A DNA stretch of 18,943 nucleotides from a virus (Duplodnaviria > Heunggongvirae > Uroviricota > Caudoviricetes): IMG/VR virus record IMGVR_UViG_2529293214_000009. One strand, written 5' to 3'. A program made the position numbers. Shown piece after piece: positions 9,001 through 15,000 of the stretch; position 1 is the stretch's first letter, and each line of letters starts with the position of its first letter.

Positions 9001-12000
9001 AAAATATCCTGCACAGTTGCGACACCCGGCAGCCCCATACGGCTGAACTCATTTAAAATACGCGCCCCTGTTTTTACCGGGCTCTGAATCATCGCATCAC
9101 CGAGTCCACGGGCCATTTCCCCTGTTCCCCGGACGGACTGGGCGAAACCTTTACCCATTGTTGGCAATACATCGCCCAGGCTGAACGACGTACTGTTATC
9201 CTTCCAGCGATTCGGATCAGAGAAAAATGCTTCATAGCTGTCAGTTTCGCCGGGTTGCTGAATGTTCAGGCTGTTACGATTCTGGTTACCGAGTTGCGCC
9301 TCAGGACGCTGTTCCTCTGAATAGGCCATACAGACTCCATAAAAAAACCCGGCACAATGGCCGGGCATCAGGAAATGGTATTAATGGAATATCGTGAATT
9401 ACTGGGCGTAATTCTGTTTCAGTCCACGGATAAACTGAGATGCAGATGAAGCACTTTCATCTCTGGCCTGTTCCCCCCTGGCCTTTTGAATACGGAGAAA
9501 ATTCGCATACCCGTTCTCCAGCAATTTCTGATTCTGAGGTTCCAGCATTTCAGGCTGACGGGCCGCTACATTTCTGGCAAATGACAGCTTGTCAGGATCA
9601 TCTCCCGCCCAGTTGATAACCTGTTGCTGAAGTTTTTGTTGCTGAATTTTCTGTTGATGCGGTTGTGAACCAGTCGCAGCATAATATTCATCCACCGCAG
9701 CCTGAGCATTACCGCCATTCTTGATCGCGTCCGCCGCTACGTTGCTGGCCCCCTTCTGAAGCTCTTTCAGAGAAAGTCCCTGCTGCTTCGGCATAAAATA
9801 ACCATAATTTTTCGATATCTCTGCAAATTTGCTGCGATCCCTGACCTGAGCGATAGCCTTATCAACGGGTATCGCCAGCACGGTTTGATCATCAGGGTGC
9901 GCACTGCCGTATTCTGTTACAGGTTTATGCGCGGTGGAGCCATCGCTGTATGTGAGATCAAGGCCAATAAGTACGTACCCTTCCTGCTGCGCTGGTACGA
10001 TACTGCCAATCCTGGCCTCTTTTATCGTTTTGTCCCCGGTTGAATCAGGCATGCCAATACGCTGTTGTAGTTCCGGGGCAAACACGCCGGAAAGCACATC
10101 GAGATTTTCCGGGGTATTCAGCGAATCGATCGCCATGTCCGGCTTATCACCAAAGATTTTTTGCAGGTTGATCACGGCCTGACCCGCTTTCGCTGCATAG
10201 CCTTCGTTTGACATAAGAATTAATGGATGTCCCTTTGGCAGCTGCCCGAACAGACGCGTTGCAGCCTCCTGATCGCCAGCCTCAATTGCTTTTCCAAGCG
10301 CTTCCATTAGTGGCTGGCTATGGGCAATCATATCGTTATACTCAAGCCGTCGCTGGTTGTATTTCTGCAACTGGAGTCGCTGCTGCTCCATACCCAGTGA
10401 CGCATTCCGGTAATTCTGGTTAGCGTTAAACTCCCTCTCCTTCAGTGCATAATTACGGTCGTCAACTTTGGCTCTGTAATCAAAGTTCCGCTGATCAACG
10501 TTTTTATTATGTTCAAACTGAGACTGCGCAAACTCAAAATCGCGCTCGTTATTTTTCTGTTGCCGGGCAAGCTGTGCTTCACGCAGACCAAGCTCCTTAC
10601 GACGGGTCATTGCCTGGTCAACGGTGCTGAATCCGGCAAGTAACCCCTGTGCAAATCCGCTCATTCACCACTCCTTAAAACAAAGAACCAGCAATGCCGC
10701 CAATTACTGCTCCAGCAACAGCACCAACAGGACCACCAACGGATGCGCCAATAGCCGCCCCCGTACCAATGCCCGTACCGATATTCTGCTTGTTCTGCGC
10801 TTTCTGTTGCGCCGCCATCTGTTTGTTCGCAGCCTCAATTTCTTCACGTCGTCTGTCTGCGTCACTTATTCCCTGTAATGCCTCACGCCGCGACTGATTT
10901 GCAATATCCAGTAAACCGTATCCCATATTGCCCCCTTACGCTGCCACCAGTTGGCCGCCAACACTCAGTTTCTGTCTTGCCGGTGCAGAAGCCCCCGTCA
11001 GAATATTCATCTGGCGATCCTGTTCGGCTTCACGGATACCATTTTTCGCGCCAGCAATTGCCAGGGCATTACGTAACCCCAGCGTATTACTGTCGGGATT
11101 ATCCGGGCGGTTTACCCCGTATCTCGCCATCTGGTTATCCTGCGCCATCTGCGCTGTACGGAGACTGGAAGTGGCAAGGCCTCCCACCCGTGCAAGCTGT
11201 GCATTCATCAGACTGTTGTTCTCCCCAAGGTCAGCCAGCCTTGCCACGCGGGGCAAATATCTGGTTCGCCAGTCGTCGTATTGTTGGCGTGTCAGCGCTG
11301 CTGACGTCTGCCAGTCACCCTGTGGGCGGTCTGCTCCTGAATAACCAGCCCTTGCGAGAGTTTCGTATTTGCCATACTCCATAATTACAGTCTCCAGTTC
11401 TGAGCCTGATGCTGAATGGCATTAGCGCCGGTGCCAGGTGTTTTAGCACCGCCACTTCCTCCGCTACCGCCAGCCTTATGCATCGCATATGCACCTGCCG
11501 CACCCAGACCAGCGCCAACAAGAGAGGCTCGCCCCTGCTGTTTCGTAAACGCCGCCTGTGCATCCGATTTAGCTTTTGCCAGACTGCTGTCTGCCAGAGA
11601 GTTAAAACTCTGTAACGCATCCGCCTTCTGACCAGAACCGAGAGCAGCAACATCCTGTAGCCCGGCAACATACTTATCTGCCTGCGATACCTGCCCCCGT
11701 GTGGTTGTGTCAATCTGCCCGGTTACCTGGTCACTCTGGTTCGCATTCATTACCGCATTAAAACGACCACTGGATGGGTCAACGCCGGACTGAGCAAGAT
11801 TACCCGCAAGCTCCTTCCGTGCTTCGCCAAACTGTTTCTGATACCCCAGATTTGTGGTGCCAGCAATATTGTCGTACTGCTGCTCACTGTTCAGGTCATC
11901 GACCTTTTCCATGAAGTTATCTTCAGCCGGGCGGAGGATATTTTTGTAATCCTGCCACCCTTTCCAGGCCACTTCTTCCTGTGCTATTTGCGCTGCTGTT

Positions 12001-15000
12001 GGTTTTACTTTGGTATCACCACCGCCTTTACTTCCACCCATAATGGCCCCCTGGATAACAAAAAACCCTGCCGGAGCAGGGTCAGAATGTGAATTACAAT
12101 GTTGGTTTAAACACAATGATGAAAACTGTAGCAGTCAGACCGCTATCCTGAACACCATGAAGCCATCCTCATCATCCGGCATTCGCTCAAAGCCCAGTCG
12201 TTTTCCCAGCCGGATAAATCCCCGCCTTGCCGTATGGAACTCAGCCCAGCGTCCGCCAGCCAGATGGGTTAATGTCTTCACCTCCGGCAGGTAACGCTCA
12301 ACGCTGTTACTCCCCGTACACACGCCCAGCAACACCAGAACATAAGGGATACCATCAGCACTGAGCACAGAACGCAGCACCAAAAAGCCATCAGGTGCCT
12401 CAAAACAAAACGCCTGCTTTTTAAGGCAGGCGTCTTTAACTTCATTCATAAATTCAGGGTTGCGGGAATTTCTCACAACACGCTGCATATACCAGAGAAT
12501 TTTATCGTTCATTCTCTCACCTGAAACGGGTGCCATATCGGCTGAACCTCAGCAACCAGTTGACGGGGACTCTCGTCCCCGTCGCGGTTTTCCTACTGCT
12601 TACACTGTAAGAACGCCGCAAACTCCGCTCCCCACAAATTCAGCCGGAACTCACACAGTGAACCGTGCAACATCCAGATGGTGAAGATAACCGTCATGCA
12701 AATTGTGACGGTGATAAGCGATTTTTGCGACATAGCGCTTGACTCCTTTTACAGAGAGGCGCTAACCTTCTACTTGCTTAAGGTACGAAGTGTTAGGGCC
12801 TCGGGTTAACGTTAAGTTGACTCGGGGCCTTTCCACATCAGGCCTTCAGGTTCACCCTCCAGCCATCAGCCGAAAGGCACCCACGCATAATTTACGGTTT
12901 TTGCCCTGTACGGGCAATAAAAAACCCGCCATCACAGCGGGTAGTAAACGGTTACCGGATACAGGTCAGAATTTCAGGCCAATGCCAGCAGTAACGCCAC
13001 TCGTGCGCCAGTCGCCAGAGCCGGAACCTTCGTAAGCCACATCCAGTGTAACACTCTCATTCAGGTTAAACTGTGCACCTGCAGCCCACGCAAGGGAGGT
13101 TTTTTTCGTGCTGTTGCTTTCAGAAAATCCGCCACTACTGTTAATATTGTCCTTAATTTTCAGGTCAGCGCTAACTTTAGCAACGCCCATCCCTGCCATC
13201 GCATATAAACTCATGTACTGATTAACCCGCCATGAAGGCCCCGCTAACAGACTCCAGTAATTCGCCCTGATATCCGTTCTGGCAGAAGCTGCCGGATTCT
13301 TAATCTTCCTGGTATGATCGGCTGACTGCACATCAATAAATGTCTGTGAGTTAGTGAGAGAACGCGTCCATGTAAAAGAGGTGATAACGCCAAAATCATC
13401 CGTTATCTCGTAGCGATACCTGATATTAATGCCCTGTGGATTTTTATCCTTGCCTTCATATCCACTGACCCGACCATCTGTATATTCGCCCAATGAAGAA
13501 AAGTAGTTTCTGTTGACGAAATGACTGAAAGTCTCCCTGTTATGAGCAGTCGCATCCTTTACAAAATCCTTCAGTCCCGGAAACTGAAAGTGCGCATACC
13601 CCAGAGAAATTGTATGCTCTCCTTCTGCTGCATGTGCAGATAAATTTACACAGGCAATCCCGGAGATTGCACACACAACCAGTGTTGCTATACTCTTCAT
13701 TTAAGATATCCTGTATTCAGATAACACGCTAAACTTTTTAATAATACATCTTTTTAGACATTTTAAATGAATATTAAAGACTCGCTTCAACTAATCATAT
13801 ACTGATGTATTAATAACCAGGACCTTATCTATATACGGCTTTCGAATATCCCATGTTGCACCACCGGAATAATGCTCACAGGAATATATTTTATTTCCTG
13901 TAGCACCAGTGGATGTGGTATAAATCGGTCGATCATAAGGAGTTCTTTTCCAGTTATAATACCCGACCAGTGCAGGCATGATTGCGCATGGATATCCAAG
14001 GTCCTTTTCAAATTTGATATCAACAGGTATTAACTTCGCGTCAAGCAGCATCATTTCGCCATGATAAATCATCTCACCGTCCGGGTTATACATGGCGATA
14101 CCATACTCAGAAGGTGGAGTAACCATATTCGCGAAAGCATAAACCGTCGTAACACCAGGGTTCGTTCCCCTGACAATTACATGAAGCCTTAGTGCATGAT
14201 ATCCATCAATCTGTTCATGCGTGTACATGACATCGGCCTTCTTCTCTGTTCTGATAAAGAAAAAACAACTTTTGCCTGACGGGATTGATGTTTTAAAAAA
14301 AGACTTTTCAGTCGCCGGTATGGTGCCTTTGTTGATCAGACACTGCGGCGTAAAACCTGGACTTATCCATACGCTGCCATCCGGCTTCATAATGCTCAAA
14401 CCGTACATAACACTTATCCCCAGAATGTATAAATATAAGATCCCATACCCTGCTCAAGATTCGACCACGTCACCGTATTGTCATTAATGGTTATCTTCGG
14501 TACTTTCCGATCCGCAAATACATTATTCCAGGGAAATAAACAACATACAGCCTGCAATGATTTCCCGTCGGGTTTATTAGTGTACGTCTTTGAGCCAGAC
14601 TCCGCTGTAAATCTGTCCAGGAAAAATACTGGAGTCAGCACGCCCGTAACATTAACGTTATTTCTGTTATAAATGGCAAAACCGTATTCCAATACTCACC
14701 TCCTGATCAGCGTAATCTGCCTATGCGAACAGCCAGTCGTCCATTCTGGTCATAAACCTCAATTTTATCATTGCGGATCACCAGTCCTACATTCTGATTA
14801 GAGTAACGAATTGTCAGTTGCCCTTGTGACGTAACACTGAAAAGGCCTCCAATATTCAGGTTACCCTGAGAATCAACCTGAAAGTTTCCGTTCTGAATAA
14901 CGGCACTCCGGATAACTGGCGAAGTGATACTTACCCCGGCTTTTACCTCATCCGCCACAACCTTCCGCGACACCAGTGTTTCAATCACCGCGTCATAAAT

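Follow-up and report, generated by a model that had tools for sequence, protein, structure and literature searches.

What do the four small, closely packed genes directly upstream of a giant gene contribute to the virus recorded in IMG/VR as IMGVR_UViG_2529293214_000009? The window, the whole 18,943-nucleotide (nt) stretch analyzed here, is the late region of the Shiga toxin 2 (Stx2) phage 933W, a short-tailed podovirus of the Sepvirinae. Since it is the reverse complement of that region, all genes discussed lie on the minus strand. A preliminary description, made from the sequence alone, had singled out four genes at 9399-12041, encoding proteins of 218, 148, 83, and 421 amino acids (aa), and had likened them, together with the giant gene, to an ejection or internal-virion protein set of short-tailed phages rather than a siphovirus tail module, naming gene order in relatives and virion proteomics as checks. 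The block is real and corresponds to the annotated 933W coding sequences ST933Wp68 to ST933Wp71. We conclude that the four genes probably form an internal-virion, likely ejection-protein, cassette whose products are internal cargo of the virion. The comparison with a short-tailed phage is supported by the podovirus identity of 933W, the presence of the proteins in virions of phage phi24B, DNA-filled but noninfectious particles of a Sp5 mutant lacking the 421-aa protein, and a gene order like that of P22, T7, and N4. The features on which the argument rests are as follows, in order along the minus strand.

12135..12536, minus strand: 133-aa protein with a GNAT-like fold, ST933Wp67 = Sp5 ORF75 = phi24B gp52; the conserved module begins with this gene
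12064..12083, minus strand: terminator-like hairpin with T-run, 22 nt upstream of the 218-aa start codon
11385..12041, minus strand: 218-aa protein, ST933Wp68 = Sp5 ORF76 = phi24B gp51; exact match to the 933W coding sequence
10936..11382, minus strand: 148-aa protein, ST933Wp69 = Sp5 ORF77 = phi24B gp50; exact match to the 933W coding sequence
10675..10926, minus strand: 83-aa protein, ST933Wp70 = Sp5 ORF78 = phi24B gp49; exact match to the 933W coding sequence
9399..10664, minus strand: 421-aa protein, ST933Wp71 = Sp5 ORF79 = phi24B gp48; exact match to the 933W coding sequence
9347..9366, minus strand: terminator-like hairpin with a run of seven T, between the 421-aa stop codon and the probable giant-gene start
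948..9329, minus strand: giant polyvalent protein, ST933Wp72 = Sp5 ORF80 = phi24B gp47; the module ends with this gene

Escherichia phage 933W (AF125520 / NC_000924) matches the block 9399-12116 at 100% identity, as do numerous further short-tailed, Stx-converting phages, and 186 phage records carry it at no less than 80% identity. In Sp5 (Sakai), the counterparts of the four genes are ORF76-79 (ECs1238-1241), with products of 218, 148, 83, and 421 aa; in phi24B they are vb_24B_44-47, named gp51-gp48 in a 2026 bioRxiv preprint (10.64898/2026.04.10.717836), with protein identities of 98.6, 98.0, 100, and 100%, respectively. The stops and starts within the block had been described as overlapping or near-overlapping; with gaps of 2, 9, and 10 nt, the genes are near-abutting, and none overlaps its neighbor in the window. 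A Shine-Dalgarno-like purine run (a ribosome-binding site of the GGAG/GGGGG type) precedes each start.

Are the four products part of the virion? The phi24B particle, with a T=9 capsid, has been solved (10.64898/2026.04.10.717836), from a preparation in which some 40% of the particles had ejected. Its tail comprises portal gp72, adaptor rings gp64 and gp62, the hexameric nozzle gp57, the trimeric needle gp56, and fibers gp61, and the model was built from gp69, 67, 84, 72, 64, 62, 57, 56, and 61 only. In the accompanying proteome supplement, gp48, gp50, and gp51 appear among the structural proteins as "hypothetical," and their location and structure-based abundance are marked "ND" (not determined). 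All three are abundant in cesium chloride (CsCl)-purified virions, and gp49 is weakly detected, so that proteomics bears out an internal-virion set. In the batch sample, gp48 (421 aa) yielded 179 peptide-spectrum matches (PSMs) versus 101 for the portal, gp50 (148 aa) 83, gp51 (218 aa) 82, and gp49 (83 aa) 6, the last from one peptide; the authors' portal-referenced estimates for these CsCl-purified virions are ~37 copies of gp48, ~48 of gp50, and ~27 of gp51. Both gp48 and gp51 peak in gel slices fitting full-length proteins. The peptides that we checked include VKPTAAQIAQEEVAWK from gp51 and SGFAQGLLAGFSTVDQAMTR from gp48, the latter representing residues 2-21 with Met removed and otherwise unmodified, while EALQGISDADR accounts for 12 of the 13 gp49 PSMs in phi24B virions. 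The giant protein gp47 is likewise abundant (~23 copies) and invisible in the map, and the authors propose that it is an encapsidated ejection protein inside the capsid. Each particle contains tens of copies of the 218-, 148-, and 421-aa proteins and a low level of the 83-aa protein, and the ordered structure of capsid, portal, adaptors, nozzle, needle, and fibers includes none of the four.

These data also bear on whether the genes might be nonstructural passengers, the 83-aa protein being a bacteriocin- or lysis-type membrane peptide, the others morons or regulators, and their presence in virions contamination. RefSeq calls ST933Wp70 a bacteriocin, consistent with a sub-threshold match to Bacteriocin_IIc (E 8.8e-4; 19.7 bits against a cutoff of 27.1); in GenBank, a note on phi24B compares the 421-aa protein with a transcription factor ("transcription initiation factor-like"); and the phi24B authors, because of its bacteriocin annotation, list gp49 as "most probably contamination" (10.64898/2026.04.10.717836). 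However, all family matches fall below their cutoffs and reflect the glycine zipper only, which is also all that the Bacteriocin_IIc match spans. A class II bacteriocin was accordingly rejected as the identity of the 83-aa protein: the profile match is below threshold, and no double-glycine leader occurs in residues 1-30. An immunity gene and an exporter gene are missing as well. Furthermore, the genes hold a fixed position inside a structural operon in phages of hosts from Escherichia to Vibrio, infectivity requires ORF79, and after CsCl purification the spectral counts of gp48, gp50, and gp51 are said to be higher than that of the portal (batch counts as given above). We therefore consider passenger genes very improbable. 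The labels "bacteriocin" and "transcription factor" are annotation artifacts, and we argue that the 83-aa protein was wrongly dismissed as a contaminant.

Are the proteins needed for infection? Mondal et al. (2016; PMC5155283) made an in-frame, marker-free deletion of each Sp5 late gene. Mutants lacking ORF79 (421 aa) or ORF80 (the giant protein) gave no plaques and no lysogens and were complemented in trans; their particles had normal heads and packaged DNase-resistant DNA at the wild-type level (PMC5155283). Deletion of ORF76 (218 aa) still allowed plaques and led to very poor lysogenization, and ORF75, ORF77, and ORF78, each deleted singly, were not among the impaired mutants (PMC5155283). 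Particles that have packaged their DNA cannot infect without the 421-aa and giant proteins, infection is inefficient without the 218-aa protein, and the 148- and 83-aa proteins are dispensable in the laboratory.

The same particles lacking ORF79 or ORF80 bound no anti-tail-fiber antibody, an observation that leaves a tail defect possible and counts against an ejection role; it is because of this missing labeling that the authors concluded that tail formation was defective and classed both as tail-formation genes (PMC5155283). The main rival to an ejection cassette is thus a set of tail-assembly or completion factors, in which the 421-aa protein, and perhaps others, would build or stabilize the tail on the filled head and might stay there as a flexible or lumenal tail part. 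Besides the failure of these DNA-packed, normal-headed particles to bind the antibody, a precedent is the small virion protein gp7.3 of T7, which serves as a scaffold in joining the nozzle to the adaptor, and according to the phi24B authors, material inside the tail restricts its orientation in full particles. Yet the phi24B tail model of portal, two adaptor rings, nozzle, needle, and fibers is complete without these proteins, ~37 copies exceed what a tail part of six- or twelve-fold symmetry would need, and the negative immuno-electron microscopy relied on one antibody in a system in which tails are rarely seen even in the wild type. A role in tail assembly is, in addition, compatible with ejection, as the N terminus of N4 gp52 sits in the adaptor lumen. 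We regard tail assembly as an unlikely explanation, although one to be taken seriously.

We asked how far the arrangement is conserved. The first large homolog search was uninformative, as all of its matches were E. coli copies of near-identical sequence. Aeromonas phage phiARM81mr and Vibrio phage D79 share one order: nozzle, central fiber, 133-, 218-, 148-, 83-, and 421-like genes, and giant gene. A scan of IMG/VR found 80 loci, and the order was invariant in ~36 divergent ones, in which identity is ~50% for the 218-aa protein and 21-35% for the 421-aa protein. In the divergent loci, the 133-like gene directly follows the fiber gene, and the 148/83 junction is a 1-nt overlap. The synteny proposed as a check thus holds in Aeromonas and Vibrio phages and in ~36 IMG/VR contigs. 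The 133-aa gene (12536..12135) always accompanies the four-gene block in relatives, which makes the conserved unit larger than the block. Given the invariant order and an insert upstream of the 133-aa gene that is confined to E. coli phages, the unit consists of six genes rather than four, encoding the 133-aa GNAT-fold protein, the 218-, 148-, 83-, and 421-aa proteins, and the giant protein. This module stands just downstream of the nozzle and needle genes in 933W-type T=9 podophages. The only cassette interruption seen in relatives is an opposite-strand HNH endonuclease gene between the 83-like and 421-like genes of Vibrio phage D79 (15224-16015 of locus L003). The upstream neighbors in the window are as follows.

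17675..15972, minus strand: 567-aa protein, homolog of the phi24B nozzle gp57
15975..14707, minus strand: 422-aa protein with a lambda-J-like tail-tip domain, homolog of the phi24B needle gp56
within 12966-14692, minus strand: 92-aa gene, 205-aa gene, and lom, between the needle gene and the 133-aa gene

The 567-aa nozzle protein matches the GP4 nozzle in the PDB (8jov; 8.6e-54). The 92-aa and 205-aa genes and lom (12966-14692, minus strand) make up the insert, found in the E. coli lineage only and missing from Aeromonas, Vibrio, and metagenomic relatives; G+C content dips to 41-43% across it. The phi24B preprint suggests that gp54 and gp55, the 205-/92-aa pair, may form a BamA-binding protein at the needle tip (10.64898/2026.04.10.717836). 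Further upstream, a lateral tail-fiber gene (Sp5 ORF67, phi24B gp61) with collagen-like Gly-X-Y repeats at 18491-18894 (minus strand) runs off the right end of the window.

What are the individual proteins? Scans of all four against Pfam, PHROGs, and NCBIfam gave only sub-threshold glycine-zipper matches and PHROGs of unknown function, and PDB sequence searches with single proteins and profiles gave nothing meaningful. The 218-aa protein is Gly-rich at both ends (MGGSKGGGD... and ...AGGSGGSGGAKTPGTG), as had been described, and its N-terminal MG[GK] is invariant across 56 distinct homologs. A hidden Markov model of the family matches Bcep22 gp70 (E 4e-12), and profile alignment with hhalign against the 277-aa "virion-associated protein" of GP4 gives 93.9% (E 1.6e-7); the GP4 protein shares the motif G[VI][DN]P[ST]SG[RK] and begins MGGKGGGD. 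By these profile matches, the 218-aa family is homologous to both proteins. An annotated acyl-CoA N-acyltransferase precedes the 218-like gene in GP4 and Bcep22 as well as in many phages of Ralstonia, Erwinia, Klebsiella, Pseudomonas, and Rhizobium; in all of these, the gene is followed by a phosphoadenosine phosphosulfate (PAPS) reductase, a ~510-530-aa virion protein, and then a DarB-like giant. Mass spectrometry of JC1 placed the 218-like gp64, gp67, gp68, and the giant gp69 in virions and did not find the acetyltransferase gp63. With their C-terminal glycine zipper, the GP4/Bcep22 218-like proteins resemble a 218-like and an 83-like part joined on one chain.

The 83-aa protein has an N-terminal helix and then a C-terminal glycine zipper ending in SLF. 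The membrane segment proposed there is present, and it stays below the Pfam threshold for Gly-zipper_YMGG (9.4e-6; 25.7 bits against 28.9), with a Kyte-Doolittle maximum of 1.69. Members of its family always start with MGYG[LI][LI]D and end in LF, mostly as ...SLF. The 148-aa protein matched no known family; its homologs occur at the equal position in Aeromonas and Vibrio phages and viral contigs.

The 421-aa protein belongs to a small family (66 clusters in 1.84 billion representatives) whose N termini read MSGFAQGL or M[GS]VSGLAE. It had been called a Q/N-rich coiled-coil protein. Q plus N indeed reach 21-23% in the N- and C-terminal thirds, while the coiled coil fares less well: AlphaFold2 predicts one uninterrupted helix at residues 4-129 (126 residues; predicted local distance difference test score [pLDDT], 85.7), and hydrophobic periodicity, heptad or hendecad, was not above that of shuffles. 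Beyond the helix, the model shows a mixed helical and beta domain, in all a predicted orphan fold, without a fold match to the periplasmic-tunnel protomers N4 gp51, DEV gp72, and T7 gp15. Pfam Inj_translocase (PF16928), the family of P22 gp20, was not matched, hhalign against gp20 gave 0.5%, and only a GFLAG-like N-terminal motif is alike. Profile comparison with Bcep22 gp74 and the GP4 509-aa protein likewise returned only the N-terminal motif and was not significant. One family member, P0143, has 1386 aa, with the family domain at residues 5-279 and a long C-terminal extension without a Pfam match; this extension could be a fusion hinting at a partner of the 421-aa protein.

Which known systems does the module resemble? 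The P22 order of gp10 (nozzle type), gp26 (needle), gp14 (151 aa), gp7 (229 aa), gp20 (471 aa), and gp16 matches 933W in gene order and size series, from a small protein of ~130-150 aa through ~220 aa and ~420-470 aa to the largest protein, and mutants of both P22 and the 933W-type phage Sp5 yield DNA-filled, noninfectious particles. P22 gp7 and the 218-aa protein are both rich in A, Q, N, and G; the N terminus of mature gp7 (KGGKGG...) resembles MGGSKGGG, and the weak hhalign match (13.5%, E 2e-3) aligns the 218-aa N terminus exactly to the gp7 N terminus left by OpdA cleavage. The C-terminal zipper of gp7 (...GGGIGLLGSLF) was matched by the 83-aa family at 85.9% (E 5e-6) over 32 low-complexity columns, and both end in GSLF. 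Neither the 218-aa nor the 83-aa protein matched Pfam P22_gp7 (PF25688) at E<=0.1. Unlike P22, 933W has the zipper in a separate 83-aa gene, an extra 148-aa protein, a 2793-aa polyvalent last protein, and two dispensable genes among the four.

Bcep22 and JC1 (Lessievirus) and GP4 (Gervaisevirus) have portal, major capsid, adaptor, and nozzle proteins homologous to those of the 933W group, a GNAT gene at the equal position, and a ~500-aa virion protein directly upstream of the giant. Their module runs GNAT, 277-331-aa virion protein, PAPS reductase, 509-532-aa virion protein, and DarB-like giant. It differs in joining a 218-like core and zipper on one polypeptide (with an N-terminal transmembrane segment in Bcep22 gp70), in the inserted PAPS reductase, and in having no detectable homologs of the 148- or 421-aa proteins apart from the N-terminal motif. 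Meanwhile, the Schitoviridae N4 and DEV, likewise T=9 podophages, encode gp53 (plug), gp52 (150 aa), gp51 (644 aa), and the virion RNA polymerase gp50 (~3500 aa), that is, small and medium helical proteins beside a giant encapsidated protein, which are ejected first and form an outer-membrane complex and a periplasmic tunnel for the giant. The conserved N termini of the 933W proteins recall that of N4 gp52, docked in the adaptor lumen. However, sequence similarity is absent, no fold matches gp51, gp72, or gp15, and the 933W giant is a polyvalent LPD/MuF_C protein rather than an RNA polymerase. In T7, the core proteins gp13, gp14, gp15, and gp16 and the small gp6.7 and gp7.3 (the small ones, 88-196 aa) are borne in the virion, partly dispensable or related to assembly, and ejected; T7 differs in an ordered stack visible on the portal, a density not reported for phi24B, and in the lack of detected homology. 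Comparisons by hhalign with T7 gp6.7, gp7.3, gp14, and gp15 and N4 gp51 and gp52 were negative (<=2.3% for T7 gp14, gp6.7, gp7.3, and N4 gp52), and Pfam T7_gp14 was not matched.

What of the giant gene to which the four are linked? Two GC-rich hairpins with T-runs bracket the four-gene block, one upstream (12083..12064; 8-pair stem with 5 GC pairs, then TTTTGTTATC) and one downstream (9366..9347; 7-pair stem with 6 GC pairs, then TTTTTTT). Because the first 13 codons of the longest giant open reading frame (2806 aa) contain the downstream hairpin, the gene probably starts at M14 (window 9329) and encodes 2793 aa, as in the Sp5 annotation. This start leaves a 69-nt gap after the 421-aa gene that contains the terminator-like hairpin, which could modulate read-through into the giant gene. 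The giant protein carries the Pfam domains LPD5, LPD1, MuF_C, and LPD38.

Strict linkage to a giant LPD-domain protein recalls the Dar system of P1 (Hdf, DarA, DdrA, DdrB, Ulx, DarB), in which small head-internal proteins are co-packaged with an injected giant multidomain protein. By analogy, the small 933W proteins would be capsid-internal adaptors or chaperones that load the giant "DarB-like" protein, as Hdf, DarA, and DdrA do for DarB, and the payload would act against host defenses rather than in DNA passage. In keeping with this, the Bcep22 and GP4 counterparts of the giant are annotated as DarB-like, neither the 148- nor the 83-aa gene is required, the copy numbers are similar to those of internal head proteins, and the JC1 authors suggested Dar-accessory roles for unknown virion proteins. 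However, the 218-, 148-, and 421-aa proteins had no Pfam matches at all, to DarA families or any other, with Hdf, DdrA, DdrB, and Ulx not compared individually. P1 is also a myovirus without need of an ejectosome. P1 Dar proteins are dispensable on nonrestricting hosts, whereas ORF79 and ORF80 are essential even when phages are grown and plated on one K-12 strain, where restriction is irrelevant. A Dar-like loading role is possible for the dispensable members and does not explain essentiality on a nonrestricting host; as an account of the cassette, we find it rather improbable.

Several further points weigh against an ejection cassette. Classical P22 ejection-protein mutants make complete tails, in contrast to the missing fiber labeling of the Sp5 mutants. 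The dispensability of ORF77 and ORF78 misfits obligatory channel subunits, and the estimated 27-48 copies exceed the 10-12 usual for ejectosome rings. Evidence for the 83-aa protein in virions is a single peptide. No significant sequence or fold similarity connects the proteins to T7 gp14/gp15, N4 gp51/gp52, or P22 gp20, and the motif-level resemblance of the 218- and 83-aa proteins to P22 gp7 appears weak at the N terminus and of low complexity in the zipper. Finally, ejection from the particle, arrival at the envelope, and the individual roles are what we infer.

How might such a cassette work? A role as pre-ejectosome cargo is suggested by the short tail (~22 nm), the position of the cassette, the P22, T7, and N4 precedents, the gp7-like features, the membrane-prone zippers, and the Gly-rich N termini. 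The proteins would be loaded into the procapsid or the portal-tail lumen. On receptor binding the needle would leave the nozzle, and the cargo would exit ahead of the DNA, as do P22 gp7/gp20/gp16, T7 gp14/15/16, and N4 gp52/51/50. The gp7-like 218-aa protein and the glycine-zipper 83-aa protein may insert into envelope membranes, and the 421-aa protein, with its ~19-nm N-terminal helix and conserved Gly-rich N-terminal peptide, may oligomerize into or line a periplasm-spanning conduit or escort the giant protein. The 148- and 83-aa proteins would be accessory, and the nonvirion GNAT-fold protein might act during assembly or on the internal proteins.

Why would a GNAT-fold gene accompany the cassette? 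The 133-aa protein has the fold of the GNAT acyltransferase superfamily, matched nothing in Pfam, NCBIfam, or PDB sequences, and is missing from the phi24B virion proteome. Its b4-a3 loop, rich in Gly in the Aeromonas type (GDGGAP), is not conserved in E. coli, and the GNATs of Bcep22, JC1, and GP4 are not alignable with the 133-aa family. P22 gp14 (8911-9366 of locus L088) and T7 gp13 (9308-9724 of locus L087) head the classical ejection cassettes at the position of the 133-aa gene; they share an N-terminal motif (MITFTPTRNIDL and MMTIRPTKSTDF) and look GNAT-like by eye, a relationship unsupported by profile tests. Neither kinship of the 133-aa protein with these two proteins nor a GNAT identity for them found support by hhalign or PDB profile search. 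We can only speculate that the GNAT-fold proteins of 933W-, Aeromonas-, Vibrio-, GP4-, and Bcep22-type phages are dedicated modifying enzymes that acetylate or acylate the conserved N termini (Met-Gly... or Met-Ser...) or lysines of the internal proteins, which is doubtful at present. Such acylation would prime them for membrane insertion or packaging, in parallel with the RTX pore-forming toxins, which are activated by small GNAT-like acyltransferases. N-terminal acylation is unconfirmed: the phi24B data hold an unmodified, Met-less N-terminal peptide of gp48, and acetylation is not among the modifications reported there. If true, acylation would add to genome delivery in podophages a step that is both new and widespread.

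The genes, their essentiality, and their presence in virions had already been published or preprinted, and an ejection role had been proposed for the giant protein, so the present work is a refinement of partly known proteins rather than a discovery. That none of the four would be recognizable is no longer quite true, given the published genetics and proteomics and the GP4- and Bcep22-type relatives of the 218-aa family. No homology to lysis or conjugation functions was found, and the proteins were not absent from virions. What is new is the assignment of all four, the dismissed 83-aa protein included, to one conserved internal-cargo module, its extension to the 133-aa GNAT-fold gene, the homology of the 218-aa protein to virion proteins of GP4 and Bcep22, the gp7-like motifs, and the predicted orphan fold of the 421-aa protein.

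Shiga toxin genes are spread among E. coli by short-tailed Stx phages, whose DNA crosses the envelope after BamA recognition. As probable internal cargo, the four orphan proteins and the giant are concrete candidates for the delivery machinery, a view that reconciles the "tail gene" genetics of 2016 with the virion proteomics of 2026. The module links Stx phages to the GP4/Bcep22 group and, at the motif level, to P22 gp7. It is common to ~60-kb T=9 podophages of many Proteobacteria, always with a GNAT-fold gene.

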